NCBI GenBank assembly: GCA_016765265.1
Contig: JAESQG010000566.1
Span: forward strand, 1-34,528
DNA: 34,528 nt
Reading direction: 5' to 3'
Source: Pseudomonadales bacterium
GTDB lineage: Bacteria; Pseudomonadota; Gammaproteobacteria; Pseudomonadales; DC-out160
The position numbers and the translations under genes are program-made. Positions 383 to 34,476 of the stretch are shown here, in pieces. Position 1 is the stretch's first letter, and each line of letters begins with the position of its first letter. Under the pieces are notes generated by a model. It searched no databases and was not told where the DNA came from. It saw only the letters and a list, made by a program, of their open reading frames with translations.

Positions 383-487
383 ATTTGGTCGGTGCCAGAG
401 ACGGCTAATCACGAGCAAAGTAACCGTAGGCTGAATGAAATCAAGGTGTGCAGCCCATTTTTAGGCTGGAATGATGGTATTGCAACT

Positions 488-1293: not shown

Positions 1294-1355
1294 TTTTCGG
1301 GTAGCGAAGCGCACATAGTGCGTGCCGCTAATCAGACCCGAACGGGTGCAAATAC

Positions 1356-2579: not shown

Positions 2580-2812
2580 GTTAGTGTTTGCGGCTGTAGG
2601 GCATCAATCGCGTATATGCCGTTTATAAGCTGTATTAATAGAGAGTTGTTAATAAGTTTTATAGCGCTTTGACAGTAATTATGAAACATAAGTTTTGATT
2701 CGAGCTAATTCTGGGCATTAGGTTTCATAACGAAAGCTTCAGCTAATAAGGGTTATGCAAGATTGTTTTTGAAATTGTGTATTGAAATTGTTTTAGAGAA
2801 AGGTAACAACAA

Positions 2813-3094: not shown

Positions 3095-3201
3095 AACTCT
3101 TTCGTGAGATATTTTTCTAGTGATAAAAATATTCACAAACCTTTGACTATCACTTTGACTAAATCTATTCGTATTCATAGCTACTCCAATCTATTCTTAA
3201 A

Positions 3202-4029
3202 TTATAAAACACAAGAAACGGCAGGTCTATACATTTCAAATTCTTCTTCTGTCCAAGAAGAATCTTTCCCTTTTAAGAACGCCATAACTTTATTTTGAGC
3301 CGCTTCACCATAAAAATTTCTAGCAAATCTTGGAATTTTTGAATCTCCATTATTTTTATTATCTCTAAACTTTTTAACTTGATTTGATAAATATTTTAGC
3401 GAAGTCGATAACAAAATCCCCGGACTACCATTAACTCTTTCGCAAGGTTTGGCTTCACCAATTTGCTGAAAACAAAATAGTTTAGTATAAAATTTTAAAT
3501 GTCTTGGGTGCACTTCTACAAGAAAGTCCGTTTGCTTCATATTGTGAAAAGCATGGATGAAAATAAAATGAAACATTCTCAACAAAATAGTCTTTGATGT
3601 TCTATATTCCGGTGCTATTGCTAGACGAGTAATCTCCGCTAATCGACGATTCATTTTTCTTAATGAAAATAATTCCTCATTAAAAATTTGATCACATGGT
3701 AGCCCGTCACCAGCTTCAAAATTTAAAGTTACAGTGCCAACGGCTTTTCCTTCTTTGGTTTCTACCAATAATGTAAAAACGTTTTTACCACCATCAAAAC
3801 TATTTACACAAACTTTATCTTCATTATGAATATATCCTGATTCGTTGTACACTTTGTAACCCAATTCATAGGCCTTTCGTCTAGAATCAATGTCCGTAGC
3901 GACAATAAAATTAAAATCTTCTTCATCATTTAAGTCAACTTTTAGCACAGGTTTTTTAGCAGTAGCGCTAATTATTTTTATGACTTGTGAAACAGCTGAA
4001 ATTCTTCTTTTTTTATTTGAAGCAATCAT
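3202..4029 (-). CDS. FeeM-type long-chain N-acyl amino acid synthase (NAS paralog A)
   Basis: GNAT-like motifs shared with the two other paralogs: [57 protein letters not shown]. The start is set at ATG 4029 because AGGAG lies 7 nt upstream. The ORF-track ATG at 4071 overlaps the predicted -12 promoter element. Confidence 0.7.
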
Positions 4030-4065
4030 TTTATTTCTCCTGTGATAATAAACATATTGAGTATA

Positions 4066-4082
4066 AAGCATTTAGTATGCCG
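4066..4082 (-). promoter_or_regulatory. sigma-54 (-24/-12) promoter candidate for NAS A
   Basis: The minus strand reads CGGCAT-ACTAA-ATGCTT. GG is at 4081/4080 and GC at 4069/4068, exactly 10 nt apart. The element lies about 40 nt upstream of ATG 4029, and a sigma-54 activator gene is divergent 150 bp away. Confidence 0.6.
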
Positions 4083-6602: not shown

Positions 6603-6756
6603 TCCTCAACATTAACTTTTTTCAAATTAAGTATCTATATGTAAAACCGCTACAACTCATTCTGTTGTAATATTGTTTCCATACAACATATATATAGAAA
6701 CACCAAATTAGAAGACTAAACTTCTTTGAAAAGAATTCAATTTGAGAATATCTACC

Positions 6757-9700: not shown

Positions 9701-10446
9701 GCAACACCGCTATTAGTTCAGAACACCTACTGACCTTTCGATCAGGGGCAGCAGGTTTTTATGATTTAACTAATAGAGGCGGAACAGGAAACTTCGGTGG
9801 TTTTAAATCCAGTTGTACATCAAATCTTATTCCAGCTGATGGAATACTAAATGCTCCCGATTATACCAGATCTTGTTCATGTGCTTATCAGCTCACTGTC
9901 TCCTGTGCTTTGGTCCATATGCCTGATGTAGAGTACTGGACATTTAAAGCTGATGCTACTCCTGGAAAATGGGGATTCAATATTGCTGCATTAGGAGATA
10001 GGAAAGTCCCCAATGGTTCTTTGTGGCGAAAATTTGACATTTTAAAAAACAGAAAATATATACGATCAACTTCTGGCAAATTAACACCGTTCAGAGTTCA
10101 TTCAGGCTACGTTAAAGGAGAAAAGTTTAAATGGGTTGCTTCCTCTGGAGTAAAAGGTTTAACTGATTTAAACATCAATGTTAAGGGAGCTACCAAAGGT
10201 ACCGTTAGGCTAATTTTCATGGAACCAGACAAACTCAAAATAGGAGATAGAATCTTTGATATATCATTGCAGGGAAAAGAGTTAATTAAAGGGCTTGATA
10301 TAATCAAAGAATCTGGAGGACAAAATCATGTCCTGATCAAAGAATTTAAAGATATCGAATTAAACAATTCATTAAAAATTATATTTAAAGCATCCACAAA
10401 GAACCCACCTATTCTCAGCGGAATAGAAATTATCAAAACAAATTAG
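6757..10446 (+). CDS. secreted PQQ-like beta-propeller repeat protein with a central Rossmann/methyltransferase-like insert and a C-terminal malectin-like domain
   Basis: The N-terminus is hydrophobic (FFIVISAQIFLLFISIHS). BamB/PQQ-like repeats recur (SGKQKWIF, DGYLYCLNAESGKLIWKY, DANSGKMIW, DAYTGRLLWE, NRKTGKILWK, DIKTGKEIW). The C-terminus IFDISLQGKELIKGLDIIKESGG resembles malectin domains. The ORF track starts at TTG 6742; ATG 6757 is preferred. Confidence 0.6.
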   Translation: MHIFNTKFFIVISAQIFLLFISIHSEDWPMWKGTSGRGGVNNETLPSKMNLLWTRQFPKSKPAWANNKSQAKLQFDVSFQPVVMGKSIFVPSNVNDSVSAYDTDSGKQKWIFYSDGPVRFAPVANDNKVYFVSDDGYLYCLNAESGKLIWKYNGGPENRKILGRDRLISIWPARGAPVLKNKKIFFAASIFPFMGTFIHCVDANSGKMIWRDTGNGPKYFTQPHGAGSFAGLSPQGYLAAGDKYLIVPGGKSLPAVYDIETGKFLYYYLNSKKGGYSVQAGKNFYFTGGYANQINKTEKGFSIINGIYATYGNTLISDKAMYLLHNSIITAYRFKPEFEMKVYKKNRKKAYLTMPVLGEFTIPSPKSAVRIKAGNQIILYERYKKHLYAVKLPNEETLLKAKAGESVKQNLPTIWTIPTGKSPWSVIAADKKVFVVTHEGLLSCYGASTQEVQKHNIALTPLPDTSNSVAKSLLEVLKELKIKDGYCVLAGLGNDKLAETLINKTNLSIIAVDSDKSKINSLRHSTDQAGFYGNRMSVHEGDPLSYPLPPYFANIIIITNLSKRFLYSKSNLKTLFNSLRPYGGTAFFKVSPSDIDKVKALSTKAGLINAEIKASNGWMLLIRKGALPDSAEWSHQYADSSNSIFGKDKLVKLPLGLLWFGGPPNTNVLPRHGHGPSPQVAGGRVIIEGQNMLRAVDAYTGRLLWELKLKNLGYYYRHTGHHPGANEIGGNYVSLQDTIYVAYGKDLLFLEAATGNLLKKINYKENDSDKESKTWGHISVHKNYLITTTSPITFKIQKDKTAIINKNAKYSSGSEQIIVLNRKTGKILWKRKAKFNFRHNAICSGDGVLFCIDSFSKSKFNYLRNQEEKIGKLLALDIKTGKEIWSSNENITGTFLNYSDKHKVLLQAGSSNRDRARDETKTGMIVYQAKDGKVVWQNLKIKYGGPLIIRHKEIITNGGGGTGIDLLSGKATSFKWKRNYGCNTAISSEHLLTFRSGAAGFYDLTNRGGTGNFGGFKSSCTSNLIPADGILNAPDYTRSCSCAYQLTVSCALVHMPDVEYWTFKADATPGKWGFNIAALGDRKVPNGSLWRKFDILKNRKYIRSTSGKLTPFRVHSGYVKGEKFKWVASSGVKGLTDLNINVKGATKGTVRLIFMEPDKLKIGDRIFDISLQGKELIKGLDIIKESGGQNHVLIKEFKDIELNNSLKIIFKASTKNPPILSGIEIIKTN

Positions 10447-13421: not shown

Positions 13422-15041
13422 CTATTTAACAATAAACTCAGCACTTGTCTCTTCGCTCTCCGCAAAACCAATTCGAATAGATTTAGTTCTAATTCGATAA
13501 CTACCTTTTTCTAACATTAAAGGTTCATGATACAATTGCCATTTAATATTTTCTCCATTTTCAAACGTGTAGGCAATTGAGGCTCCCTGAGTCATGCAAA
13601 CTAATTGAACTCGAGTTGGTGAAGAAAACTCTCCTCCCATTGGTGTCAATTCAGACTCTAACTTGTTTTTATCTAGCGGGAAAAATTTCACGACACTAGT
13701 TTGTGGTTGCTTACCATCAGGATACCAATTTCTTACCATTTCTTCTTCAGTTATTTTTCCTAAATCTCCAATATCAAACATCCATTGATCAAGAGCTTTA
13801 CGCAATCTTTTTATTTCAATTTTGTATTTAGAATCTTTTGCTAAATTATTGACTTCATGGGGATCTTCTACAATATCATATAATTCTTCTGAAGGTTTTT
13901 TTTCAAACATTAATTTCTGCACATCATTCAGCTCATCACTAAAATACAAACGATGCATCTCCTGAACTATGGGATGACGATTACAATAAGGTGTAAAAGG
14001 CAAATAAGGAGAATGAAGATCATAATGTCTCATATATTTAAATTTTTTATCTCGAACAGCTCTCACCATATCATAACTTTCATCGTGCCTATCCCGATGA
14101 GCAAAAATATATTCTCGGGCGTCCTCTTTTTCGTTTCCTAAGAACGCTTGGCCTTGCATATACTGAGGGATCTCTAGTCCTGCCAAGGACATCATCGTTG
14201 GTCCAAGATCAACTGAACTAATCAAGTCCTCATTTATTGAATCTGGCTTAACGTTCTCAGGATATCGAATGATCATAGGTATATGAATTCCAGAATCATA
14301 AGGCCAACGTTTACCGCGAGGCATTGGACCATGATCACTCCAATGTACTACGATGGTATTTTCAGCCAAGCCATCTTCGTCCAATTCTTTTAAAAGATTG
14401 CCTAATTGTTGATCCGCCCATTCAATGTTAGCATACATTTGAGTCATAGACTCTCTAACTTTTTTAGTATCAGGAAAATAAGGTGGCAAGACCATATCAT
14501 CAGGATTAAAATTATTTTCACACCATTTATTCTCTGGCCACATGCCACTTTCATGCGTTAACATCGGATTAAATACTGCGAAAAAAGGCTGTTCTGTATT
14601 CGGACGATTTCTCCAATGAGCCTCTTTTCCTAATTCATCCCAAGCCGTAACGGGTGATTCAAATTGATAATCAGTCTTATGATTATTAGTACAATAATAT
14701 CCGCTTGCTCTAAAATATTCTGTAAAACATTTTACATAATGAGGCAACTTAGCATCATAGGGCGTGGGAAGCTCTCTACAGTTATCATTATTATGTGTCG
14801 TTCGCATATGATGAGTACCAATAGAAGTCGGATACATCCCTGTGATTACCGCTGACCTTGACGGAGAACAAACACCCGATGGCGCGAATGCATTGGGCCA
14901 AATACAGCCATCTTTTGCAAGCTGATCAACTATTGGAGTACGGGCAACCTGATCACCATAACATCCATAAAATGGATTCGAATCTTCAAAAGATACCCAT
15001 AAGATATTCGGCCTGTTCTTAGCATTACTATTCTTACTCAT
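13422..15041 (-). CDS. sulfatase (formylglycine type) with a C-terminal beta-sandwich domain; no signal peptide
   Basis: PNILWVSFEDSNP followed by the CSPSRSAVITG C-x-P-x-R motif, then WSDHGP. The start is set at ATG 15041 (MSKNS); the ORF-track GTG at 15074 adds 11 residues. Confidence 0.85.
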   Translation of the reverse strand: MSKNSNAKNRPNILWVSFEDSNPFYGCYGDQVARTPIVDQLAKDGCIWPNAFAPSGVCSPSRSAVITGMYPTSIGTHHMRTTHNNDNCRELPTPYDAKLPHYVKCFTEYFRASGYYCTNNHKTDYQFESPVTAWDELGKEAHWRNRPNTEQPFFAVFNPMLTHESGMWPENKWCENNFNPDDMVLPPYFPDTKKVRESMTQMYANIEWADQQLGNLLKELDEDGLAENTIVVHWSDHGPMPRGKRWPYDSGIHIPMIIRYPENVKPDSINEDLISSVDLGPTMMSLAGLEIPQYMQGQAFLGNEKEDAREYIFAHRDRHDESYDMVRAVRDKKFKYMRHYDLHSPYLPFTPYCNRHPIVQEMHRLYFSDELNDVQKLMFEKKPSEELYDIVEDPHEVNNLAKDSKYKIEIKRLRKALDQWMFDIGDLGKITEEEMVRNWYPDGKQPQTSVVKFFPLDKNKLESELTPMGGEFSSPTRVQLVCMTQGASIAYTFENGENIKWQLYHEPLMLEKGSYRIRTKSIRIGFAESEETSAEFIVK

Positions 15042-15088
15042 TTTATTATTTCCAATTAAAATAATTGATATCACATGCTAGTAGTCAT

Positions 15089-15287: not shown

Positions 15288-16655
15288 ATGTCGGAGAAAC
15301 CAAACATAATTTTAATCAATTGCGATGACCTAGGTTATGGTGACCTAGCCTGTTATGGATCAAAAGTTAATAAGACTCCAGCACTTGATAAGCTGGCAGC
15401 CGAAGGAATTAAATTCACTGATTTTTATATGACATCACCTGTCTGCTCACCTTCTAGAGGTTCCATGCTAACAGGCTGCTATCCTCCAAGAATAGGTTTT
15501 GGATCTTTTGTGAATGGCGGCTGGGTATTATTTCCAGGTGACGCATTAGGATTACATGAAGATGAAATTACGATTGCAAAATTATTAAAACAAGCAGACT
15601 ATCAAACTAAGATAGTTGGCAAATGGCACTGCGGAGACCAAAAAGAATTTCTACCAATACGACATGGGTTTGATAGTTATTATGGCATACCCTATAGTAA
15701 TGACATGGGACGCCAAAATGCCGATGATAAACAACCACCCCTACCTCTTTTAAAAGATGAAGAAGTCATCCAAGAACAACCAGATCAAAGAGGAATAACC
15801 GAGCGATACACCGAGGAATGCGTTTCTTTTATTCGAGATAATAAAGACAAACCATTCTTTTTATACCTAGCCCATATGTATGTTCATTTACCCATTTATG
15901 TACCAAAACAATTTCTCGATAAAGCTGAAAATGGACCTTATGGTGCTGCCGTTGAACACATTGATTGGGTTACTGCTGTTCTAATGGATGAACTTAAAAG
16001 GCAAGGCATAGACGATAATACATTAATCGTCTTTACCAGCGACAATGGATCTCGCGCTCAAGGGGAAGGTGGCAGCAATGCTCCACTAAGAGGACGTAAA
16101 ACCCAAACCTGGGAAGGTGGCCAAAGATTACCATGCATTATGCGTTGGCCAAGAAAAATAAAATCAGGTCTCGTCAATAAAGAAATCACCTCATCTATGG
16201 ATTTCTATAAAACATTCGCTGCCCTGGCAGGTGTAGAAATACCAACAGATAGAATTATTGATGGTAAAGATATTCGACCAATGCTTTTTAATGAGCCAGA
16301 TGCCAAAAGTCAATACGATGCTTTTTTTTATTATAAATGCAATGATTTAGAAGCCGTTCGCTCTGGAAAATGGAAGCTACATGTGTCAAGAGACAAAGTA
16401 AAGGTTGAAGAATTATACAATTTAGAGTCTGACATAGGCGAACAAACAAACCTCTTTAATCAAGAACCTGAAATAGTCAAAGACTTAATGATAAAAATTA
16501 AAGCATGTCAAAAAGATATCGGTGATGAAGCCGCTGGTATAAAAGGGGAGAATATACGCCCTATCGGAAAAGTTGACAGCCCTGATACGCTAACTCACTA
16601 CGATCCCGAGCATCCATACATTATTGCATTATACGATTTAAAAGAACGTGGTTAG
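15288..16655 (+). CDS. sulfatase (formylglycine type); no signal peptide
   Basis: PNIILINCDDLGYGD, the CSPSRGSMLTG motif, TSDNG and GGQRLP are present. A GAGGA Shine-Dalgarno sequence precedes the ATG. Confidence 0.9.
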   Translation: MSEKPNIILINCDDLGYGDLACYGSKVNKTPALDKLAAEGIKFTDFYMTSPVCSPSRGSMLTGCYPPRIGFGSFVNGGWVLFPGDALGLHEDEITIAKLLKQADYQTKIVGKWHCGDQKEFLPIRHGFDSYYGIPYSNDMGRQNADDKQPPLPLLKDEEVIQEQPDQRGITERYTEECVSFIRDNKDKPFFLYLAHMYVHLPIYVPKQFLDKAENGPYGAAVEHIDWVTAVLMDELKRQGIDDNTLIVFTSDNGSRAQGEGGSNAPLRGRKTQTWEGGQRLPCIMRWPRKIKSGLVNKEITSSMDFYKTFAALAGVEIPTDRIIDGKDIRPMLFNEPDAKSQYDAFFYYKCNDLEAVRSGKWKLHVSRDKVKVEELYNLESDIGEQTNLFNQEPEIVKDLMIKIKACQKDIGDEAAGIKGENIRPIGKVDSPDTLTHYDPEHPYIIALYDLKERG

Positions 16656-16720
16656 GACAATTCACTTAATTAAATATATTCGCTTCATATGTCAAGCCTA
16701 TGTGCATATGTTAATTCCAC

Positions 16721-17896
16721 CTAAGCAAGAACAAGTTCATGTTCAACACCAAAGTAACACATTTCATCTACACTCATTGGTCTACTTGATTCACGAATAA
16801 AATCACCAATATAGGCTTCCTGCATTTCTAAAACAAAATAGTTGTACAATGTTTTTCTCCCAACTCTTGCTGTTGTATTTCTACCAGCAATTATTTTTTC
16901 TTCAGCTTTACCAAGATCTAGTTTTAATAAGACGGCAGGAGCTCCTTGAACCCTTCCACAAGGCTTAGAGTCACCAATTACTTCAAAACATAAAAGTCTT
17001 TTGTAATAGCCAACATGTCGAGGGTTAACCTCAATCAACATATGATCAGATGCAAGGTTTTTATATGCATGTATATAAACAAAGTTCATAAGATTTTTAA
17101 TTAGGTTTCGAGAGTTCCTATAGCTTTCATCAACAACCAATCGAGTTATCTCCACCATTTTTTTATTTTGATTATTCAACTCACTTAATTCGTCTTTAAA
17201 TATTTTCTGACAAGGAATATCGCCATGAACATTTGACACTACTGAAATAGAAGCCACAGAATTTCCATTTTCGTCTTCTGCTAAAAAAGTAATTGTATCC
17301 GGCCTTGCATCGTCACTATTAACAAATAATTTATTTCGATCTTGAGATGAATAGCCACACTGACCATATACTTTTTGAGATAATTGATAAACTTTCTCTC
17401 TATCAACTCGATTAGAAGCCACACTAATTCTAAAGTTGATCTTTTCAGATATCTCCCATTTTGGAGAACCAATTTCTACTTCTTCTTTTAATACCCATAG
17501 TGCTTGAGAAGTTGCTGAACGTTTTTTCTCTTTGATTTGATGCTTTTTCTCAATCTCATCTCGCACTTCAATTTTTTCACTCTTCAATACCTGTTTTAAT
17601 TTTCCGCCTGAGAGAAAAATATCCTCTCTATCCTTTGCACCCAATTGAATTAAAAAATCATGAACAATACATTTATCAGATATAGAAGTTAACACTAATG
17701 AAAGACTAACGACTAAAGCTCCCAAATTCCAATAAGGGTTGTACATACTCATGAGTAGAAAAATAGAAATTAAAAACCCACTGATTAGTCTTCCATATCT
17801 ATCCACACTCCAGTGACTAAAACTTTTAGACAAAGCTGCTTTAAAACCATTTAAATGATTGTTCAGTTTTGGGGTCTGAATCGCTGAAATACTCAT
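16721..17896 (-). CDS. membrane-anchored FeeM-type N-acyl amino acid synthase (NAS paralog B): DUF2892/YgaP-like two-helix N-terminus plus NAS domain
   Basis: The N-terminus has VDRYGRLISGFL (the DRxxRxxxG signature), two hydrophobic helices, and SDKCIVHDFLIQLG. The C-terminal part carries NAS motifs INFRISVASNRVDREKVYQLSQKVY, VEITRLVVDESYR and EVNPRHVGYYKRLLCFEVIG. A GGGAGA Shine-Dalgarno sequence precedes the ATG. Confidence 0.7.
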   Translation of the reverse strand: MSISAIQTPKLNNHLNGFKAALSKSFSHWSVDRYGRLISGFLISIFLLMSMYNPYWNLGALVVSLSLVLTSISDKCIVHDFLIQLGAKDREDIFLSGGKLKQVLKSEKIEVRDEIEKKHQIKEKKRSATSQALWVLKEEVEIGSPKWEISEKINFRISVASNRVDREKVYQLSQKVYGQCGYSSQDRNKLFVNSDDARPDTITFLAEDENGNSVASISVVSNVHGDIPCQKIFKDELSELNNQNKKMVEITRLVVDESYRNSRNLIKNLMNFVYIHAYKNLASDHMLIEVNPRHVGYYKRLLCFEVIGDSKPCGRVQGAPAVLLKLDLGKAEEKIIAGRNTTARVGRKTLYNYFVLEMQEAYIGDFIRESSRPMSVDEMCYFGVEHELVLA

Positions 17897-18124: not shown

Positions 18125-20422
18125 ATGAGTTTTATTGATGCATGGTTAAATGAGGATCAAACAGCCATGGACAATCTCCTAAAAAAGAGTTCCAAAAATA
18201 AAAAACTCCACCAAGCTTACGAGGCAATAATAAATTCCAACAATTCAGATTCATTGAAATTCAAATCGTTAATCAATGTTATTGAAGACCCACCTGATGA
18301 CCTTGAAATTTATTCTCTTCTACTTTACTTAGCAGCAGACGTGGCCTATGCCACCAACAATTTTTCCGAATTAAATAGAATAATTCAAATCTATCAAAAT
18401 CTAGATCTTTCAAAAATAAAAAGCATATGTAAAAGTCTATTTTACTTATCATTAGCACGCCTAGAATTATCTAAAAATATGTCTGACCAACAACTTGAAT
18501 CAGAAATAAAAGCAGAAAGTCTATATCCAAAAGGGTCAATACGGTGGTATAAAATGAAGGCGAAAGTGACCTTAGGATGCATACTCCACAAAAAGGAATA
18601 CGATATTTCAAAGGCAATTAAAATATTAAAAGGATACCCTCAATTCTCTGAATCAACCTTTCCACCTGAATACCTTCAAGCAAGATATTATGAATCAATT
18701 GGAAAGTTATCATTGGCCTATCAGGAAATTAACAAGATTAAAAACATAGCCATATTTGGAAAGTTTGGAGAAAATATATTCTCACAAAAAGTAAAACTTT
18801 TGTGGAGAGCTGGAAAAATTGAAGAAGGTGATATAGAGCTAGAAAAATATTTGAACATGTACCCAGAATTAATCGGCAATAGATCCGGCAAGTTTTTATT
18901 AGCAGAAAGAAGCATGCTATTAAATGATTCAAATGGTACAAAACAGCATTTAAAGGAAATCTTAGCTGACAAAAAGGTTTTATCGCTTAGTAGATTTTGG
19001 GCGAATTATTTATTGCTTTGCGCAGAGTTAGCTCAACGACAAACAGTATCCGCTCGCAGAATATTAAATACAATGGATCCAGAAGGAACCAATAAGGGAC
19101 TTTTTACAGAGTGGGTAAGATTATATACTCAGGAAGACAATTACAGAAAAGCAGCCTATTATTTCAAGAAGATGCAAGAAGATCGTCCAAATTATCTTTT
19201 AGAGTTTCATTATGCTCACGAAATGAGAGCTTCACAGATCACAAAATTAATATTGACGATCAATGATGAAGAGTTCAATGAAGTAAAGAGTGTTATAGAA
19301 AAACCACACTATAAAATCGATGACACTAAAGACTCTTTTGAAAATTTCATAGGAACCTCAGAAAGTATTAACACCGTAAAAGAAAACATACAGAAATATG
19401 CCAATCAATCAGCACCCGTTTTAATTACAGGCGCAACTGGTACAGGAAAAGAAGAAACAGCCAAACTACTTCATAAACTTTCTGATAGGTCAAAAGAACC
19501 TTTTATTCCTGTCAACTGTGGAGCCATATCCAACACCTTAATGGAAGCAGAATTATTTGGCTATAAAAAAGGAGCATTTACAGGTGCCATGAAAGATCAT
19601 AAAGGTCTCTTTGAATCTGCAGGCAAAGGCACCATTTTTCTTGATGAGATCAGCTCTATGCCCATGCCCTTACAAGCTTCTCTTTTACGAGTATTAGAAA
19701 ATATGATCGTCAGACCAGTAGGAAGTACAAAATTTATTCCTATTGAGGCAAGAGTTATTGCGGCGACAAATATTAGCCTGGAAATATTATTAGAACAAAA
19801 AACATTTCGCATGGATCTTTACTTTCGCCTTAATAGATTACAAATCAATCTACCTTCTCTTCAAGATAGAAGAGATGACATTCCTCTTTTAATTCAACAC
19901 TTTTTGGGCCATCATTTTAATCTTTCAGACACAACCATAGATAAAAATTTATTGGATGCAATGCAAGAGCATTCTTGGCCTGGTAATATCAGAGAATTAA
20001 AAAATGAAATCGAAAGAATGGCCATTATTACCGGCAATAATAAATTGATTACAAATGAGCTTGTAAATTTTAAGAGTTCCGAAATAAAAGAGAATATTGC
20101 ACCAATTGATATAAAACAAAAATCCTTCGTTTCAGATGAGAATAAAATCACTCCAATGACACAAGAAAATATTTATTCGCCACCTAATATCTCTTTAGAA
20201 AAAGGTGTGAAAAATTATAGCGAATATAGAAGGCAAGAATTACGACAATTATTCCAACAACACCGCTTATTAACACGAGCTATGGTTGTTCGGTTTTTAG
20301 GATGTGCTGCCAATACTGCTGCGAAAGACTTGAAGAGTTTAGAAACAGCAGGTTACTTAAAAAAGGTAATTCCTACCGATTCTCCAAGATCTTCCTATTA
20401 CATATTAAATGATAAAAATTAA
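18125..20422 (+). CDS. sigma-54-dependent transcriptional activator (bEBP 2), same architecture as bEBP 1
   Basis: Walker A GATGTGKE (about 19430-19453), GAFTGA (19571-19588), IFLDEISS, and EAELFGY are present. The C-terminus LTRAMVVRFLGCAANTAAKDLKSLETAGYLKKVIPTDSPRSSYY aligns with the bEBP 1 tail. The N-terminal domain is helical. Confidence 0.85.
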   Translation: MSFIDAWLNEDQTAMDNLLKKSSKNKKLHQAYEAIINSNNSDSLKFKSLINVIEDPPDDLEIYSLLLYLAADVAYATNNFSELNRIIQIYQNLDLSKIKSICKSLFYLSLARLELSKNMSDQQLESEIKAESLYPKGSIRWYKMKAKVTLGCILHKKEYDISKAIKILKGYPQFSESTFPPEYLQARYYESIGKLSLAYQEINKIKNIAIFGKFGENIFSQKVKLLWRAGKIEEGDIELEKYLNMYPELIGNRSGKFLLAERSMLLNDSNGTKQHLKEILADKKVLSLSRFWANYLLLCAELAQRQTVSARRILNTMDPEGTNKGLFTEWVRLYTQEDNYRKAAYYFKKMQEDRPNYLLEFHYAHEMRASQITKLILTINDEEFNEVKSVIEKPHYKIDDTKDSFENFIGTSESINTVKENIQKYANQSAPVLITGATGTGKEETAKLLHKLSDRSKEPFIPVNCGAISNTLMEAELFGYKKGAFTGAMKDHKGLFESAGKGTIFLDEISSMPMPLQASLLRVLENMIVRPVGSTKFIPIEARVIAATNISLEILLEQKTFRMDLYFRLNRLQINLPSLQDRRDDIPLLIQHFLGHHFNLSDTTIDKNLLDAMQEHSWPGNIRELKNEIERMAIITGNNKLITNELVNFKSSEIKENIAPIDIKQKSFVSDENKITPMTQENIYSPPNISLEKGVKNYSEYRRQELRQLFQQHRLLTRAMVVRFLGCAANTAAKDLKSLETAGYLKKVIPTDSPRSSYYILNDKN

Positions 20423-25562: not shown

Positions 25563-26075
25563 ATGATGACCAAAAGAGCTCAAATATTAAACAAGTTCAT
25601 GAAGGATCAGGCAAAATTCAAAGCATTTGCTTATACCATGACATTAGACTGGTCAATTGCAGAAGATGCAACTCAGGAAACAGCCGTTTATATTTGTGAT
25701 CACTGGGAAAAATTCAAACTGGGCACCAATTTTAATGCCTGGGCACGCACACTTATCAAAAACAGATGTCGAGAGTTATTACGTAAAGAATACATGGAGC
25801 AGAAAAAGATTCATAAGATCGCCGAAGTAATAGAAGACACTGTCTGGGATCAAGTTGAAAATATTGATGGAGAAAAAATAAATGCTTTACATAGTTGTGT
25901 AGAAAAACTTCCGGCAAAAACAAAAAAAGTGTTCATGATGTTTTATCAAGAAAAAATTAAATGCCAGATAATTTCTGACTTTTTAAAAATAACTGAAGAA
26001 GCGACATATAAGATATTAAGTCGCACAAGGCGAAGTCTAAAAACCTGTATTACAAATCAAATGAAAGAGCTTTAG
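25563..26075 (+). CDS. ECF-family RNA polymerase sigma factor
   Basis: Region 2 (DATQETAVYICDHWEKF...FNAWARTLIKNRCRELLRKE) and region 4 (LPAKTKKVFMMFYQEKIKCQIISDFLKITEEATYKILSRTRRSL) are both present. Confidence 0.85.
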   Translation: MMTKRAQILNKFMKDQAKFKAFAYTMTLDWSIAEDATQETAVYICDHWEKFKLGTNFNAWARTLIKNRCRELLRKEYMEQKKIHKIAEVIEDTVWDQVENIDGEKINALHSCVEKLPAKTKKVFMMFYQEKIKCQIISDFLKITEEATYKILSRTRRSLKTCITNQMKEL

Positions 26076-26080: not shown

Positions 26081-27631
26081 ATGAATAACCAAACAGAATA
26101 TTTCAACCTACTATTAGAAAAATATATTGCGAATGATCTATCAGATAATGAAAGTCTGAAACTAAAAAAATTGCTTTCAAACAATATGAATTATCAAAAG
26201 AAATTTGCAGAGGCGCTAACTTTCGAAGCAACCATACAAAATGTTATGAATGACAAAAATGCTGCTCTGAAAGAAGCTGAACAAAATGGAAAAATAATTC
26301 CATTTAAAAGCAAAACAAAACATCGAAGTAGAAGATTTCAAAATCAAAAACAAGAATCTAAAACAAATAAAATTCTAATTGCCATAGCAGCAATATTTGC
26401 AATATGTATTACTGGATGGATATACAAAGACACTCTAACTCAATACAACAATATAGCTATGGATGTTAAAATTGATGCCATAGGACAAGTGCAATTCACA
26501 AGAAATAATAAAAACACAAATTTATATTCCTTATCTCAATTAAAACCAGGCGATATTTTAGAAACAAAACAAAGCGAATATATAAAAATTATGACTAAAG
26601 ATGGCTCTAGCATTTTAGTCAATGAAAACACAAAAATTGTTGTGGGTGAAACTCGTTTAAATGTCCTAAAAGGTGATATTTACGCTAATATACAAAAAGG
26701 TGAAATAAATTATTTTAAAAATTATAGTACCGATCAGCAGCACTCATTTTCCATTCAAGGTACTATTTTTGAGATTTCAAATGATACACAAAATAATACT
26801 TCTAGACTTTCAGTTGAAGAGGGGCAAGTTTTATTCGCAAGAAATAAACAACACAAAATTATATCAAGCAGATATTCAATCATATCGAATAGCTTAAATG
26901 GATTTGGAGAAAAAAGAAAACTTCTAAAAAATGAAATTATTGCACCTTGGATAAGCTACTATTCTTATTTAAAAAATTCTGACGTTATTTTTATTGATAA
27001 TTTTGATTCAAAATCAATTAGAAAGGACTGGACCATTACTAAAACCGGTCAGTGTGAAATAACATATCCAAAATTTAAATCTGTTGCAGAGTTAAAGGTT
27101 AAAGGCTTATCAAAAATAATAATATCTTCGCCAATTATTAAGCTAGATGATCAACCAATGCATATACGTTTTAGTGAGGATCAAATATATGGAGAAGGTC
27201 CTTTTGAATATGGCTTTGCTATTTATATGAATGGAGAATTACAATTGGAACAATCTATAAGGGTTAAAAGAAAATCAAACAATAAATTTCACTTCATTGA
27301 AGTTATTATAGTAAATGGTGAAAAACAAAAGGGGAAGGGATCATTAGTAAGCGCCCAACTGCCAATAATTGAGACATCTTTTCATATATCACCTAGGCCA
27401 AAAGACGACACTGTTGATAAAAAAGTAACCATAGATTATAAACAATCAATCAGTATGCCCGAGATTACGAGCATTATCAAGGGTGAAAATATTCAAATTA
27501 AATACTTCCTAAAGGGGCTTTCAAAAGACGCAAAAGCAAATTTTGGTTTAGATGCTTTTATAGTTACAAAAAGTAAAAAGCTAACCAACAAAATTATCGC
27601 TGAGTTTATACCCTATATCAAAATTGAATAA
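26081..27631 (+). CDS. FecR-type transmembrane anti-sigma factor with an additional C-terminal domain of unknown function
   Basis: It starts 5 nt after the sigma gene stop. It has an N-terminal anti-sigma helix region, one TM segment (ILIAIAAIFAICITGWIY), and a FecR-like beta region (GDILETKQSEYIKIMTKDGSSILVNENTKIVV ... FSIQGTIFEISN ... VEEGQVLF). About 230 further residues are unassigned. Confidence 0.7.
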   Translation: MNNQTEYFNLLLEKYIANDLSDNESLKLKKLLSNNMNYQKKFAEALTFEATIQNVMNDKNAALKEAEQNGKIIPFKSKTKHRSRRFQNQKQESKTNKILIAIAAIFAICITGWIYKDTLTQYNNIAMDVKIDAIGQVQFTRNNKNTNLYSLSQLKPGDILETKQSEYIKIMTKDGSSILVNENTKIVVGETRLNVLKGDIYANIQKGEINYFKNYSTDQQHSFSIQGTIFEISNDTQNNTSRLSVEEGQVLFARNKQHKIISSRYSIISNSLNGFGEKRKLLKNEIIAPWISYYSYLKNSDVIFIDNFDSKSIRKDWTITKTGQCEITYPKFKSVAELKVKGLSKIIISSPIIKLDDQPMHIRFSEDQIYGEGPFEYGFAIYMNGELQLEQSIRVKRKSNNKFHFIEVIIVNGEKQKGKGSLVSAQLPIIETSFHISPRPKDDTVDKKVTIDYKQSISMPEITSIIKGENIQIKYFLKGLSKDAKANFGLDAFIVTKSKKLTNKIIAEFIPYIKIE

Positions 27632-27871: not shown

Positions 27872-30301
27872 ATGACATCATTCGAAAAACAATCAGTCAC
27901 TAGCCATGTTGCTTCAGGAAATCAATTAAATAGACGATCGTCAAAAAGACCATCATCCGTCAGCTCAATCATAAAAAAGTTTGAGCTCGATGAATACTCA
28001 ACTAATATAATTGAAAAAGATAAATTCAATTTCTCAATTACTTCCAATAAAGAAGATCGAAAAAAATGCTATGAACTTGTCACAGATGTATACATGAAAA
28101 AAGGTTTTTTAATCGATAACGATTATCACTCTGTTATTTCTAATTATGACAACCAAATAACAACCGTTATCGTTTCCGCAAAGGACTCTTTAAATAATGT
28201 CATTGCCACCGTAACAATCGTACTAAATATTTCTGATTTACCTTGCTTCCAAACTTTTCCTAACGAAACAGAAAAATTAAAAGACAAAACTCTTGCTGAA
28301 GTTACTAGACTTGTCATTCATGATGATTACCGACAAAGTAAAGATCTTTTAATAGGTCTATTTAATTATGTATTTATCTATGCTTATAAAGTTTTCAAAT
28401 GTGATCACACATTAATAGAAGTTAACCCAAGACATGTACAATATTATAAACGATTTCTTTATTTCAGACCACTGTCTGACAAACAAGAATGTGCTAGAGT
28501 ACAAAATGCACCTGCCATTCTTTCTATCATTGATTGGGATACATTGAATACAATAGAAAATTTTCCACACAAAATTAAAAACTTAAAAAGATCCTTCTAT
28601 AGTGGATTACATTTACAAAAAACAAAATTAAATTCCATAGAAGAAGATATCAAAGAAGCAACTAAATTTAAAAAATATCAAACATCTAAAATCCAGAAAG
28701 ACATCTTTCAAAAATTCTATGACATCGTCGGCTTCGAAAATGTTAAAATAGATTTAGATACACGTTTTGAATATGGAAGAAGTACACTCGAATCAGGAAC
28801 TCTTCCTAAATTAATCATCCAGCCTGAAAATCATGATCAAGTAAAAGAAATCATGTCTCTTGCGAACGAAATTGTATGGGAAGTCCATCCCATCAGTACA
28901 GGTAAAAACTGGGGTTATAGTGATGCTTGTGCATTAAACAATGGAGTCGTTTTATTAGACTTAAAAAGAATGAATAAGATCTTTTCCTTCGATGCAGAAT
29001 TAGGAACAGTAGTCGTAGAGCCAGGGGTAACACAAGGTCAAGTGGCTAAATTTCTTGAAGACAATAATCATCCATTCATTATGGATGCTACCGGAGCTGG
29101 ACCAGACACAAGCTTGATTGGCAATACAGCCGAAAGAGGTTTTGGCCATAGTCCAAATGGTGACCGCTTTGCTAATAGTTGTGGCTATGAAATCGTTTTG
29201 GCAAACGGAGAAGTTCTTCAGACAGGTTTTGGTAGTTTCGAAAACTCTAAAGTGACTGACGTTTATAAATGGGGTGTTGGTCCTAGTCTTGATGGTTTAT
29301 TCACACAATCAAACTTAGGTGTCATCACTAAAATGACTTTTTGGTTAATGCCAAAACCAGAATGTTTCAAAGTGGCTTACTTCATGTTAAAGAACAATTC
29401 AGATATCGCTGAATTCATTGACCGCATTAGACCTTTGAGAATGGATGGCACATTAAAATCCGTCATTCATATTGGTAATGATCTTAGAATACTTTCTATG
29501 TCACAATCATATCCATGGGAAGAAATGAAAGGCGCTACTCCATTGGCTCCGAAATTAAGAGAGAAAATGATTGAAAGAAATGGTCTTGGTGCTTGGTCTG
29601 GAACAGCTGGGCTTTATGGATCAAAAGAACAAGTTAAAGCTGATATTAAAAAATTAAAAAAAGCTTTGAAATCTTTCAAAGGCATGAAAAAAATGATTAT
29701 TCTCGGCGAGAAACAAGTTAACTTGATCTCAGCAATTGGCCAAAAAATAAAAGACTATTCTTTTGGAAAAAAACTACACACTATTTCACATAAAATAAAA
29801 ATGGCTTTTGATCTATTAAAAGGTCAAAGTCCTGAAACATGCGTACAAGGTGGATTATGGCGCGTAAAAGATCAAAAGAAAAAAGACTCTATCAATTCAA
29901 GCAATCCATTAGATTATAAAGCTGGCTTTTATTGGATCTCTCCAATATTGCCAATGAAAGGTTCACACGTAACAGCCTTACAAAATTTAGTAGAGCCAAT
30001 TTTTAACTCATATGGATTTGATCTTCAACAAACATTAAGCATGACAAACGAAAGATCATTAAGTTCAGTGATGACAATTTCATTTGATAAGAAAAATAAA
30101 CAAGAAGCCTCAAATGCACGAAAATGTCATGATCAAGTTGTTGATGCCTTAACTGAAGCAGGATATATTATTTATAGAGCTGGTAACCACACAATGAAAA
30201 AACTTGATTGCCGAAAAGATGCATATCAGTCAGTTCTATCATCAATTAAGAATGCCTTAGATCCAAATAACATTCTAAGCCCAGGTAAATATAATATGTA
30301 A
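27872..30301 (+). CDS. fusion protein: FeeM-type N-acyl amino acid synthase (NAS paralog C, about aa 50-235) plus VAO/PCMH-type FAD-linked oxidase (about aa 290-809)
   Basis: NAS motifs: FNFSITSNKEDRKKCYELVTDVY, AEVTRLVIHDDYR, EVNPRHVQYYKRFLYF. Oxidase motifs: HPISTGKNWGYSDA, VVVEPGVTQGQV, LIGNTAERGFGHSPNGDRF, EIVLANGEVLQTGFG. These run collinear with the vanillyl-alcohol oxidase FAD-binding region as I recall it (ISIGRNSGYGG ... GNAVERGVGYTPYGDH ... VVLANGELLRTGMG). Confidence 0.75.
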   Translation: MTSFEKQSVTSHVASGNQLNRRSSKRPSSVSSIIKKFELDEYSTNIIEKDKFNFSITSNKEDRKKCYELVTDVYMKKGFLIDNDYHSVISNYDNQITTVIVSAKDSLNNVIATVTIVLNISDLPCFQTFPNETEKLKDKTLAEVTRLVIHDDYRQSKDLLIGLFNYVFIYAYKVFKCDHTLIEVNPRHVQYYKRFLYFRPLSDKQECARVQNAPAILSIIDWDTLNTIENFPHKIKNLKRSFYSGLHLQKTKLNSIEEDIKEATKFKKYQTSKIQKDIFQKFYDIVGFENVKIDLDTRFEYGRSTLESGTLPKLIIQPENHDQVKEIMSLANEIVWEVHPISTGKNWGYSDACALNNGVVLLDLKRMNKIFSFDAELGTVVVEPGVTQGQVAKFLEDNNHPFIMDATGAGPDTSLIGNTAERGFGHSPNGDRFANSCGYEIVLANGEVLQTGFGSFENSKVTDVYKWGVGPSLDGLFTQSNLGVITKMTFWLMPKPECFKVAYFMLKNNSDIAEFIDRIRPLRMDGTLKSVIHIGNDLRILSMSQSYPWEEMKGATPLAPKLREKMIERNGLGAWSGTAGLYGSKEQVKADIKKLKKALKSFKGMKKMIILGEKQVNLISAIGQKIKDYSFGKKLHTISHKIKMAFDLLKGQSPETCVQGGLWRVKDQKKKDSINSSNPLDYKAGFYWISPILPMKGSHVTALQNLVEPIFNSYGFDLQQTLSMTNERSLSSVMTISFDKKNKQEASNARKCHDQVVDALTEAGYIIYRAGNHTMKKLDCRKDAYQSVLSSIKNALDPNNILSPGKYNM

Positions 30302-30427: not shown

Positions 30428-31960
30428 ATGAGCAAAAAACCTTTAAATTTTATTATTATTACATCAGACCAACAACGTTGGGATTGTTTAGGGAAATTAA
30501 ATTCCTTAGTTCCAACACCTAATTTAGATAAATTAGCTGATGATGGAATACTTTTTACCGATGCCTACTGCCCTAGCCCAACCTGTACTCCATCAAGAGC
30601 CTCACTATTAACAAGTCAATTACCATCAAGACATGGTGCCTACAATATAGGTACATCCTTGGATATTGATACAAAAGGGATCGCGCATCAGTTCAATGAA
30701 AATGGCTATGCAACTTCATTAATTGGCAAAGCTCATTTCCAACAGTGTCATGGATGCCCAGATAGTTTAGAATCTGAACCTAAAGTTCATAACTGGGATT
30801 TTTTTCAAAACTGGAATGGCCCTTATTATGGATTCGAACATGTTGAATTATGTATTGGCCATACAAACGAAAAAAAATCCGGCGGCATGCACTTTGGTCT
30901 TTGGTTAAAAGAGCAAGGCATTGATTTAGAAAAATATTTTAATTACGGACAATTCGATGCCTTCTTTGGTCATGGTAAGTGGGATCTACCAGAAGAATTT
31001 CATAATTCAAAATGGATCGCGGACAAATCCATTGAATTCATTGATAAACAAATTGAAGCCGACAAATCATTTTTACTGTGGTCTAGTTTTCAAGACCCTC
31101 ATGCTCCATGTTGGGTTTCTTCACCATGGGATACAATAGTCAATCCTGATGATATCCCATTGCCAAAACAATTTCCAGATGATGCCAAAAACAAACCACC
31201 CTTCTATGCGCCGTTAGATAGCGAAGAAAAAAATGGGTATCCTGCTTACGACAAGGATGAAACAACCAAATGGAATCATAATTTTGGAATTCCCCATAGC
31301 TGGTTTAATGTTTTTAAAGAGCCTGAAGAAATAAAAAAAATCACCGCGCTTTACTATGGGATGATTGCCCTCATGGATCATCATATTGGTCGAATGATAG
31401 ATGCTTTAAAAGAAAAAGGGATCTACGACAATACCGTCATTGTTTTCACTTCAGACCATGGAGATTATTTAGGACATCATAATTTATGGAATAAAGGCCT
31501 TCACGCTTACGATGATATTCAAAAGGTACCTTTCATTGCCAAGGTACCTGGCAATAAAACCAAAGGCAAACAAAGCACTACTCTTCAAAATTTAATGGAT
31601 ATCGCACCTACCTTCAGTTCACTAGCCAACTTTGACATAAATCGAAACTATGAAGGTGTTGATCAATCAACTGTTTGGTCAGGCGAAAATAAAAAAGTTC
31701 AAGATTGGACCATGTGTGAGTTTCGTCCCAATGAAATGGATTATCTCCAACGAACATTTATCACTGACGAATACAAGCTTGTAGTTTATATGAAAAAAGA
31801 ATATGGTGAGTTATATGACCGCATCGAAGATCCTGATCAACAAAACAATCTTTGGGATCAATCTGATTTTCAAATATTAAAAGGAAAGCTACTTTTGAGA
31901 ATGGCATCAGCCGATATGGAACGGGAGCGACATTATCAGCCCAGGACATCCGGTGCATAA
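30428..31960 (+). CDS. sulfatase (formylglycine type); no signal peptide
   Basis: LNFIIITSDQQRWD, the CTPSRASLLTS motif and TSDHGD are present. Confidence 0.9.
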   Translation: MSKKPLNFIIITSDQQRWDCLGKLNSLVPTPNLDKLADDGILFTDAYCPSPTCTPSRASLLTSQLPSRHGAYNIGTSLDIDTKGIAHQFNENGYATSLIGKAHFQQCHGCPDSLESEPKVHNWDFFQNWNGPYYGFEHVELCIGHTNEKKSGGMHFGLWLKEQGIDLEKYFNYGQFDAFFGHGKWDLPEEFHNSKWIADKSIEFIDKQIEADKSFLLWSSFQDPHAPCWVSSPWDTIVNPDDIPLPKQFPDDAKNKPPFYAPLDSEEKNGYPAYDKDETTKWNHNFGIPHSWFNVFKEPEEIKKITALYYGMIALMDHHIGRMIDALKEKGIYDNTVIVFTSDHGDYLGHHNLWNKGLHAYDDIQKVPFIAKVPGNKTKGKQSTTLQNLMDIAPTFSSLANFDINRNYEGVDQSTVWSGENKKVQDWTMCEFRPNEMDYLQRTFITDEYKLVVYMKKEYGELYDRIEDPDQQNNLWDQSDFQILKGKLLLRMASADMERERHYQPRTSGA

Positions 31961-32973: not shown

Positions 32974-34476
32974 CTAGGCATCAACTTTAAAAGTAGCCGA
33001 TTTTACCTCTTCTCCAGTAAAATAATTCAATATTGATGGTGCATAACCATCTTTTGGTCTTGGTCGAAACACACCACCCTTAAACCCCAATTTAGCTTTA
33101 TTATTCCATGGTCGTTTTTCCCAACAGGGACCCCGCATCGGATCACGCTGTTTATAAAAATAATCAATTAATTCATCAAGCATAGCATCTCGTATATCAG
33201 AAAAATTTTCATCAAGAATAAGGTTTATTAATTCAGCTGAATCATTTTTTAAATCGTACAACTCATCCACATCATCAAGCAAATTAATTGATAACTTGTA
33301 ATCACCTTTAACAATACACCTAATAGGATGAAACCCATTCAATCCATCATGATCAACTTCAAAACGATTAAATTCAATAAATACCGATCGCTTTTCTTCT
33401 TCTTTTAATGTGGAGACAAGGCTCTTACCAGCAAAAATATCCGGGATATCAAGGTCGGCTAGCTCCAACATAGTCGGCAAAATATCAACATGACTAACAA
33501 GAGTATTGTTCTCCTGACAAAAGGAACCCCTATCAGGAAATTTAATCAGCAAAGGAATATGAGTAATCTCTTCATACATGACTGGACCTTTACCTTTTAA
33601 TCCATGCGCAGACATCATATCACCATGGTCTGAAGTGAAAATTATAATCGTATTATCTTTTGCATGTTGATCAATCGCCTTTAAAACCCTACCAATTTCA
33701 TTGTCAACAAAACTATTGCAACCAAAATACATTGGTTTCTTAACCTTTTTATTTCGTTCCGATACACCGGCATGTACGGCCCAATCTTTTTGTAATTGCG
33801 GTTTGCCTTCTAAAGAATCAAAGGCACCATCACCAATGTCATACTCAAACTCTTCAAATGATTCCACATATTCTGACGGACATGTAAATGGACCATGAGG
33901 CTCATCATAAGAGACCACTAATAAAAAAGGGTCTTCTTGACCATCTTGTTTACTTAGGAAATCAATCGCTCGATTACTAACTTGATGACCCCATGTCCAT
34001 TCGGATTTTATCGAATTCTCTTTTAAATCTGTCAAAGAATTTAATTGTTCTCGCCATAGTTTTTTTTCATTTTGACTTAACAAATTCATATGGTTACGAC
34101 CATCATACCAGTATTCATTATCCCACCCATCCGGACAAATTCCGCTTCCATAATAATCATGAGCGTCCAAGTGCCATTTACCTGTATAGGCTGTTTTATA
34201 GCCACCGTCACGAAAACGCTGACCCATCGTTTTTATATTATCCCCAATTGCTAAATGATTCGCCCAAGCGCCATTAAAATTACCATAATTTCCCGTAAAC
34301 AAAGCGCTTCGGGCTGGTGTACATAATGGACAAGTCGTATATGCCCTATTAAATTTAATGCCATCGGAAGCTAATTTATCCAAATTAGGAGTCATTAACC
34401 CTTTTTTTGCATAGGACTCCACCATGTTAACCCCTTGGGTATCAGTCATAATAAATACAAAATTAGGCTTCTTCAT
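32974..34476 (-). CDS. sulfatase (formylglycine type); no signal peptide
   Basis: PNFVFIMTDTQG, the CTPARSALFTG motif and TSDHGD are present. An AGGA sequence lies upstream of the ATG. Confidence 0.9.
   Translation of the reverse strand: MKKPNFVFIMTDTQGVNMVESYAKKGLMTPNLDKLASDGIKFNRAYTTCPLCTPARSALFTGNYGNFNGAWANHLAIGDNIKTMGQRFRDGGYKTAYTGKWHLDAHDYYGSGICPDGWDNEYWYDGRNHMNLLSQNEKKLWREQLNSLTDLKENSIKSEWTWGHQVSNRAIDFLSKQDGQEDPFLLVVSYDEPHGPFTCPSEYVESFEEFEYDIGDGAFDSLEGKPQLQKDWAVHAGVSERNKKVKKPMYFGCNSFVDNEIGRVLKAIDQHAKDNTIIIFTSDHGDMMSAHGLKGKGPVMYEEITHIPLLIKFPDRGSFCQENNTLVSHVDILPTMLELADLDIPDIFAGKSLVSTLKEEEKRSVFIEFNRFEVDHDGLNGFHPIRCIVKGDYKLSINLLDDVDELYDLKNDSAELINLILDENFSDIRDAMLDELIDYFYKQRDPMRGPCWEKRPWNNKAKLGFKGGVFRPRPKDGYAPSILNYFTGEEVKSATFKVDA

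Follow-up and report, generated by a model that had tools for sequence, protein, structure and literature searches.

A natural fusion of an N-acyl amino acid synthase and a 4-phenol-type VAO/PCMH flavoenzyme: a candidate single-polypeptide route to N-acyl-4-hydroxystyrylamines

Introduction

Which lipid would be made by a protein that joins an acyltransferase for amino acids to a phenol oxidase in one chain, and is such a protein real? The question is raised by contig JAESQG010000566.1 of assembly GCA_016765265.1, deposited as a Pseudomonadales bacterium, which was analyzed over its whole length of 34,528 nucleotides (hereafter the window). It carries an open reading frame (ORF) of 809 aa in which a FeeM-type N-acyl amino acid synthase (NAS) is followed by a helical linker and a 4-phenol-type flavoenzyme of the vanillyl-alcohol oxidase/p-cresol methylhydroxylase (VAO/PCMH) family. 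The fusion is a genuine and rare one-polypeptide form of a known two-enzyme step, and the chemistry itself is not new. We consider it moderately probable that the protein is a bifunctional enzyme that performs two consecutive FeeM/FeeG-type lipid steps and yields an N-acyl-4-hydroxystyrylamine.

The central idea, a NAS that supplies a 4-phenol oxidase with its substrate, was put in print between 2002 and 2010. FeeG of the fee cluster, from which FeeM also takes its name, and CndG of chondrochloren biosynthesis belong to the 4-phenol-oxidizing VAO/PCMH subgroup and catalyze the oxidative decarboxylation of an N-substituted tyrosine via a p-quinone methide to generate a hydroxystyryl enamide (PMC11350588; PMC8762209). 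HyeB, the single FeeG homolog of Hyella patelloides, has been proposed to form the eneamide of the hyellamides (PMC11959600). The initial annotation of the window, made from the sequence alone, had treated the NAS and VAO/PCMH pairing as unprecedented; this view does not hold, as FeeG, CndG, and HyeB are already known on N-acyl-tyrosine. Apart from the fee case, however, no paper in the collection searched describes a VAO/PCMH enzyme that is fused to a NAS or shares an operon with one. FeeM and FeeG, from the environmental DNA cluster for long-chain N-acyl-tyrosine/enol ester, are the closest parallel to the fusion, since there too the N-acyl-tyrosine produced by a NAS of the FeeM family is oxidized by a VAO/PCMH enzyme of the 4-phenol type; the two are separate genes in a 13-gene cluster, whereas the fusion is one polypeptide, and the window gene annotation has no other fee-like genes near it.

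Domain organization of the fusion

The fusion ORF runs uninterrupted from ATG to stop at 27872..30301 on the + strand of the window, according to the ORF listing and exactly as first annotated, and its translation contains all three motifs quoted at that time (PISTGKNWGY, GNTAERGFGHSPNGDR, and VLANGEVLQTGFG). Both domains that had been described as joined in this ORF are found by Pfam. The NAS domain (FeeM, GNAT-like; PF21926) occupies aa 65-218 (28064..28525, +), and the FAD_binding_4 domain, recognized with E 3e-23 and by alignments to PCMH, nsVAO, and VAD, occupies aa 312-451 (28805..29224, +). The inter-domain linker of aa 244-286 (28601..28729, +) is predicted by DSSP on the AlphaFold model to be one long helix. 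A cap-domain segment with clade-specific insertions, delimited by alignment and model, spans aa 602-683 (29675..29920, +), and the FAD-oxidase_C domain of aa 734-806 (30071..30289, +), which scores just above the Pfam cut-off, contains Tyr768-Arg769 in alignment with PCMH Y473-R474. The AlphaFold2 model of the 809-aa fusion has a mean pLDDT of 81, and the oxidase half lies mostly above 90.

The oxidase half and its active site

Sequence and structure comparisons place the oxidase half in the 4-phenol-oxidizing VAO/PCMH subfamily, which agrees with the initial annotation. A phmmer search of aa 287-809 against PDB ranked the PCMH flavoprotein at the top (E 7e-81), followed by nsVAO, VAD, eugenol oxidase (EUGO), and VAO (~1e-50), with D-lactate dehydrogenase at 2e-14 and alkyl-DHAP synthase at 2e-5. 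The same ranking was repeated by a profile search (PCMH 2.8e-122 versus D-lactate dehydrogenase 3.6e-27), and the first 47 Foldseek matches of the AlphaFold model were all 4-phenol oxidoreductase chains (1dii, TM 0.90), other families appearing later. Clustering with D-lactate/glycolate or alkyl-DHAP enzymes together with a lack of phenol-binding residues, which had been named as evidence against the assignment, was not observed. An enzyme of the D-lactate/glycolate oxidase or alkyl-DHAP synthase type was accordingly rejected: the NCBIfam GlcD match reaches 72 bits against a cut-off of 568 and reflects the shared FAD domain only, and the PDB ranking is contrary. A classical PCMH flavocytochrome was rejected as well, as the enzyme has no equivalent of PCMH Tyr384 and the window gene annotation contains no cytochrome c gene near the fusion, whereas a PCMH-type locus (L009) has such genes.

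Residue positions were read from an alignment of reference enzymes with 97-120 homologs, and the clade counts given here refer to n = 97. The PCMH, nsVAO, and VAD references were rebuilt from printed alignments, with a Novosphingobium PCMH homolog as the bridge. The phenolate triad (PCMH Y95/Y473/R474; VAO Y108/Y503/R504) corresponds to Y349, Y768, and R769, which are invariant in 97/97 clade members; a check of these Tyr/Tyr/Arg residues had been suggested in the initial annotation together with that of the covalent-FAD His, and the second gave the opposite result. F686 stands at the position of the VAO/EUGO-type histidine (VAD H387, VAO H422 type) and G661 at that of the covalent tyrosine (PCMH Y384), and neither His at the former nor Tyr at the latter occurs in any clade member (0/97 each). 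FAD is predicted from these replacements to be bound non-covalently. In nsVAO, FAD is naturally non-covalent and the enzyme is still active (PMC7617285); therefore, the lost covalent link is no argument against activity.

Acidic residues near flavin N5, represented by VAO Asp170, the Glu of EPO, and PCMH Glu380, have no counterpart in the fusion. The Asp170 position is G408 (Gly in 94 and Ala in 3 clade members), and the Glu380 position is C657, which varies across the clade (Phe 40, Pro 17, Cys 13, Ser 8) with Glu in no member displayed. At the N5 site, oxidases carry Asp/Glu-Leu and dehydrogenases Ala/Thr-Pro/Ile (PMC7617285); the Gly-Ala pair of the clade, Gly408-Ala409 in the fusion, fits neither signature. 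The position of PCMH Tyr172 is His in 97/97 members (H426). This clade-specific His426 lies within the FAD_binding_4 region, as do the N5-contact pair and the phenolate Tyr349 (in the motif GKNWGY), while Cys657 and Gly661 fall in the cap segment and Phe686 just downstream of it. The segment equivalent to PCMH 347-390 measures 83 aa in the fusion and 75-83 aa across the clade versus 43 aa in PCMH, which corresponds to a cap insertion of 32-40 residues. The insertion is ordered in the model, with a strand at 605-612 and helices at 613-625 and 630-649 (pLDDT 82-97).

PchF (the PCMH flavoprotein), EUGO, and VAO thus resemble the fusion oxidase in fold (TM 0.88-0.90), have its phenolate Tyr/Tyr/Arg, and are its best PDB sequence matches. 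They differ from it in that the fusion oxidase has no equivalents of Tyr384, His422, Asp170, and Glu380, carries His for PCMH Tyr172 and the cap insertion, and is tied to amide-forming enzymes instead of aromatic catabolism genes or cytochrome c. The nsVAO of Novosphingobium sp. (9FFK/9FGE) is likewise a natural non-covalent-FAD 4-phenol oxidoreductase and works as an oxidase; it differs in its membership of the eugenol hydroxylase clade, its Thr-Val N5 pair, its lack of the cap insertion, and its substrate, vanillyl alcohol. A much closer relative is HyeB, which was identified as the Hyella patelloides protein P0163. Over 520 aa it shares 40% identity with the fusion oxidase half (E 5e-148), and a neighbor-joining tree without support values puts the two in one clade. 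HyeB has the cap insertions too, because its alignment with the fusion oxidase is nearly gap-free, and like the fusion oxidase it has no covalent-FAD residues. HyeB and CndG are standalone enzymes, and the proposed acyltransferase partner of HyeB is an SGNH/GDSL enzyme, not a NAS. CndG acts on an acyl-tyrosine made by a nonribosomal peptide synthetase (NRPS), which is paralleled within the clade by an NRPS-oxidase fusion described below (P0302).

The NAS half

The PF21926 profile matches the NAS half with E 8e-35 and 120.3 bits (gathering cut-off 27) over profile positions 1-155 of 158, and the NAS half aligns with standalone 277-aa NAS genes that adjoin an oxidase gene on a metagenome contig (L003). 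The motif LAEVTRLVI aligns with LAEVVQFAM of FeeM (2g0b), and E143 and R146 are invariant in the NAS alignment (n = 9 sequences). FeeM itself is no more than a distant relative of the NAS half (phmmer E 0.36 to 2g0b), and NCBIfam PRK14852 gives a weak match. In the AlphaFold model, the NAS region is confident over aa 50-180 and poor over aa 184-220. A Foldseek search with the whole model returned no FeeM structure among its matches, the fold search being dominated by the oxidase half. The substrate of the NAS is probably tyrosine, as deduced solely from the phenol-specific oxidase to which it is fused.

Association of the oxidase clade with amide-forming enzymes

The genomic surroundings of the oxidase were surveyed in a sample of 80 genome loci among the matches listed by the oxidase profile; the fused genes of the metagenome-assembled genome (MAG) NORP49, described below, were not part of it. 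NAS neighbors within 200 bp were called with a NAS hidden Markov model (HMM), which missed divergent acyltransferases that were later caught by Pfam and hhalign. By the HMM, a NAS lies no more than 200 bp from the oxidase in 38/80 loci. Every full-flank locus of Massilia, Pseudoduganella, Rugamonas, and Duganella among those listed has the NAS and then the oxidase on one strand. The stop of the NAS overlaps or abuts the start of the oxidase in L013, L014, L017, L019, L021, L023, L031, L039-L045, L048, L051-L059, L062, L065, L067, L069, L075, L077, and L085. The NAS-oxidase operon of the Massilia group goes unmentioned in the comparative-genomics study of kyonggic acids from 2025. On the L003 metagenome contig (2369..17548), two tandem oxidase-NAS pairs are present, each after a sigma-70-family gene (489-521 aa), and the contig also carries a third NAS, a PhyH-family dioxygenase, and an O-methyltransferase, suggesting additional tailoring of a phenol lipid.

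Acyltransferases of other types occupy the corresponding place elsewhere. Cyanobacterial loci have a GNAT of the Acetyltransf_5/FeeM/autoinducer-synthase-like type upstream of the oxidase. Acidobacterial loci (L061, L066, L074, L076, L089) have, directly upstream and sometimes in two copies, a 264-290-aa family without Pfam match but with remote NAS/LuxI likeness (hhalign E 6e-5, probability 66%; LasI E 6.5e-4), which may represent an undescribed acyltransferase family. Fusions of the oxidase are diverse as well: P0238 (835 aa) joins the acidobacterial-type GNAT-like family to it, P0328 (788 aa) a second, divergent FeeM domain, P0337 (727 aa) a C-terminal GNAT, and P0302 (1644 aa) an NRPS C-A-T-TE termination module whose A-domain code is DGSCIGAIGK. 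The fusions to FeeM-type NAS (twice), the GNAT-like family, GNAT, and the NRPS module are independent of one another. Other partners are a UbiE-type methyltransferase (P0311, 789 aa) and a seven-transmembrane (7TM) domain plus methyltransferase (P0257 and P0262, ~1000 aa). Most of these other fusions bear the clade signature; P0328 and P0311 deviate from it at some positions.

A subclade from Hydrogenedentota (L018, L024, L028, L029, L032, L033, and others) has a small CbiX-like chelatase-fold protein upstream and no NAS. Genes for peroxiredoxin-like and Gfo/Idh/MocA-like proteins recur near these loci. The substrate of this subclade may be different.

Proposed pathway

By family resemblance, the NAS half would acylate the amino group of tyrosine with a long chain, probably supplied by acyl-ACP, to give N-acyl-tyrosine. 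In the second step, judged from the active-site residues, the phenolate would be held by Tyr349, Tyr768, and Arg769, and a benzylic (beta) hydride would pass to the non-covalent FAD to form a p-quinone methide. A third step, proposed on the model of FeeG, CndG, and HyeB, would use the quinone methide as an electron sink and release the alpha-carboxylate as CO2. The product would be a long-chain N-acyl-4-hydroxystyrylamine, and this enamide would have 46 Da less than N-acyl-tyrosine (-46 Da). The replacement of the acid/base residues at the Asp170 and Glu380 positions would fit a reaction that requires neither water activation nor deprotonation of C-alpha. Reduced FAD would probably be re-oxidized by O2, because there is no cytochrome c neighbor. 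The initial annotation had likewise taken N-acyl-tyrosine as the logical intermediate and expected benzylic oxidation via a quinone methide, and this part stands; the products it predicted from there, with mass shifts of -2 or +16 Da, are less supported than the -46 Da documented for FeeG, CndG, and HyeB.

Several points weigh against the decarboxylative pathway. The electron acceptor is uncertain, because the Gly-Ala pair matches neither N5 signature, and the amino-acid specificity of the NAS is not readable from its sequence. Nor does the sequence of the oxidase tell whether CO2 or the alpha-proton would leave. The activity ascribed to the members of the clade is a prediction from comparison with related enzymes. 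The likeness to FeeG and CndG is taken from their published descriptions, and orthology to CndG, the sole biochemically characterized enzyme, is putative. For HyeB, its authors give only 32% identity to FeeG, and its role was proposed from gene-cluster context (PMC11959600). Finally, the Hydrogenedentota subclade without a NAS neighbor is large, and not all clade members need act on N-acyl-tyrosine.

Alternative products and substrates

The main rival to the -46 Da product is N-acyl-alpha,beta-dehydrotyrosine (M-2), which would arise if the quinone methide lost its alpha-proton; the product would be of the thalassotalic/kyonggic acid or stieleriacine type, and the oxidase would be a flavoenzyme that does the work proposed for a TyzC-like nitroreductase desaturase. 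This outcome is favored by the known ability of VAO-type enzymes to convert 4-alkylphenols to alkenes by dehydrogenation, and by the presence of the NAS-oxidase operon in essentially all Oxalobacteraceae loci listed. Planctomycetota and Massilia are known to make lipids of this type, and the assignment of their desaturase comes from comparative genomics only (PMC12479983). On the other hand, FeeG, CndG, and HyeB, that is, all described N-acyl-tyrosine relatives, give decarboxylated enamides, and neither the Asp170 nor the Glu380 position of the clade holds a residue that would obviously serve as a base. Massilia umbonata, for which only saturated kyonggic acids have been reported (PMC12479983), nevertheless has a clade oxidase (P0469), although this is weak evidence. 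Taken together, dehydrotyrosine formation is rather unlikely.

The systems to which carboxylate-retaining N-acyl-dehydrotyrosines have been assigned are TyzC-like nitroreductases and ThiF proteins (PMC12479983; PMC12856293). TyzA/TyzC/TyzB and OxzA/OxzB resemble the fusion in that a NAS initiates an N-acyl-tyrosine pathway with O2-dependent flavin oxidation, and domain fusions occur there too (OxzB, TrzS). They differ in that the oxidase (TyzC, OxzB) is an FMN enzyme of the nitroreductase superfamily and the product is a dehydrotyrosine or an oxazolone in which the carboxyl carbon is kept. Neither Pfam nor NCBIfam detects a ThiF or nitroreductase domain in the fusion ORF. One contig (L007/L008; 1..1945 and 15760..17680) bears an OxzB/TrzS-like fusion of ThiF and nitroreductase together with a standalone clade oxidase and with a NAS beside a FecR-like gene. 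The nitroreductase-type and VAO-type N-acyl-tyrosine tailoring systems therefore coexist in this organism, and this coexistence, as opposed to replacement of one by the other, is a further argument against the M-2 product. A broader form of the same idea is that the clade, including the Massilia operon and the fusion, is the true and overlooked desaturase for kyonggic acids and stieleriacine-like lipids, and that the fusion under ECF sigma/FecR control could be a self-contained signal-lipid synthase in marine Planctomycetota. This idea is more doubtful still; if it were true, the nitroreductase assignment would be overturned.

The two halves might also not act in sequence. The NAS would then acylate a non-aromatic amino acid, or the oxidase would take another phenol (a free 4-alkylphenol, a 4-hydroxyphenylglycine-type, or a tyramine-type compound), and the fusion would serve co-regulation only. 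The unpredictable specificity of the NAS leaves room for this, as do the Hydrogenedentota loci and the methyltransferases and 7TM domain among the other fusion partners. However, the oxidase has repeatedly and independently become fused or adjacent to amide-forming enzymes, its phenolate triad is invariant, and FeeM/FeeG provides a direct precedent for consecutive action; we regard uncoupled halves as quite improbable.

The least likely outcome of the oxidation is hydroxylation, in which water would add to the quinone methide to give N-acyl-beta-hydroxytyrosine (M+16), as PCMH and VAO do with 4-alkylphenols. Hydration is the default outcome in those two enzymes (PMC7617285). In the fusion, Gly and Cys stand in place of the residues linked to water activation and acid-base chemistry (VAO Asp170, PCMH Glu380), no N-acyl-tyrosine-modifying relative has been reported to hydroxylate, and on chemical grounds a free alpha-carboxylate beside the quinone methide should decarboxylate readily. 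Hydroxylation is thus very improbable, and decarboxylation to the N-acyl-4-hydroxystyrylamine is the outcome that we prefer.

Relatives and origin of the fusion

A search for the same domain fusion, which the initial annotation had proposed, found it to exist but to be rare. Among 5.8 billion clustered proteins, the only full-length matches were P0001 (812 aa, 70% identity) and P0002 (822 aa, 68%), both with the same architecture; they are paralogous fusions of one related, low-GC Planctomycetota MAG (NORP49, COA79 locus tags). In an exhaustive HMMER scan of 1.84 billion representatives at 50% identity, both halves were covered in one cluster only, whereas oxidase-only matches numbered 1264 at E ≤ 1e-30. 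The linker is alignable among the 809-aa ORF, P0001, and P0002. In the neighbor-joining tree, the three fusions are monophyletic, and their sister is a standalone oxidase of the same NORP49 MAG (L011). The L011 locus consists of an ECF (extracytoplasmic function) sigma factor, a FecR-like protein, a NAS, and the oxidase, whose start overlaps the NAS stop. GC is alike (0.32-0.34) in the fusion locus of the window, the paralog loci, and L011.

From the unfused cassette of L011 and the fused cassette of the window it follows that the fusion derived from a translationally coupled NAS-oxidase gene pair in a conserved regulator-linked cassette, and that a frameshift artefact is largely excluded. That the ORF is a sequencing frameshift or an assembly chimera of two genes, which the initial annotation had named as a possible refutation, is hardly credible: two genes with overlapping stop/start codons are the usual state and the window has a suspicious GC break at ~3100, though distant from the fusion gene, but three fused genes at 68-70% identity share the aligned linker, P0002 was recovered on contigs from two archives (ENA and JGI), the linker is modeled as a continuous helix, and GC is uniform over the fusion gene and its flanks. 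The statement that the lipid is made by a single polypeptide is thus sustained for the 809-aa ORF but not in general, two adjacent genes being the common state.

Regulation and genomic neighborhood

The fusion gene is preceded by a gene for an ECF-type sigma factor at 25563..26075 (+; Pfam Sigma70_r2, r4_2), which is 43% identical to the ECF sigma factor in the same position in L011, and by one for a FecR-like protein, a putative anti-sigma factor or sensor, at 26081..27631 (+; Pfam FecR). Homologs of the FecR-like protein are encoded at the corresponding place of L011 and next to the NAS gene of L007. Expression of the fusion is probably controlled by this adjacent pair. Promoter-like sites around the fusion gene number 19 versus 27 in shuffled sequence, and no convincing terminator was found near the gene. 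An Rfam scan of the window returned one tRNA only and no rRNA.

Two further FeeM-family NAS genes lie in the window, each divergent from a gene for a sigma-54 enhancer-binding protein. One encodes 289 aa (3202..4071, -; regulator at 4224..6602, +), and the other 391 aa with an N-terminal extension of ~165 aa (16721..17896, -; regulator at 18125..20422, +). Within its 34 kb, the window thus holds three NAS genes, and every one of them has a regulator to itself. The gene for the fusion paralog P0002 (L001/L002) likewise diverges from one for a sigma-54 activator. With dedicated regulators of the ECF/FecR and sigma-54 types next to the NAS genes, production of the lipids seems to be tied to specific signals.

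GC is ~0.50 over 1..3100 and 0.34 elsewhere in the window, with a sharp fall near 3100 that may mark a chimeric assembly or the junction of a horizontal transfer. The GC-rich part contains an Rrf2 regulator (802..1293), a cysteine desulfurase (1356..2579), and the truncated N-terminus of a second Aminotran_5 protein (2813..~3100). Four sulfatase genes (13422..15074, 15288..16655, 30428..31960, and 32974..34476) and a gene for a 1234-aa PQQ-propeller/malectin protein (6742..10446) are also present; these are typical of marine polysaccharide-degrading Planctomycetota-like bacteria and are probably unrelated to the lipid genes.

Conclusions

If the proposed pathway is correct, a single gene turns acyl-ACP and tyrosine into a styryl-enamide lipid, which would be handy for heterologous production and for enzymology. 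According to a 2024 review, there is no crystal structure for the oxidative decarboxylase class (PMC11350588); therefore, a naturally fused and well-modeled member is a useful structural target. The FeeG/HyeB-like oxidases form a large and distinct clade, which is marked by the absence of covalent flavin, the Gly-Ala pair at N5, the His in place of PCMH Tyr172, and the cap insertion, and which is tied repeatedly to amide-forming enzymes in Oxalobacteraceae, Planctomycetota, Cyanobacteria, Acidobacteria, and sulfate reducers. The points that most deserve follow-up are this class without a structure and the broad NAS-oxidase cassette, chiefly that of Massilia, where the biosynthesis of N-acyl-tyrosines is being actively investigated. 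The known sources of the pathway were one environmental DNA clone, one myxobacterium, and one cyanobacterium, and it is hereby extended to a widespread cassette.

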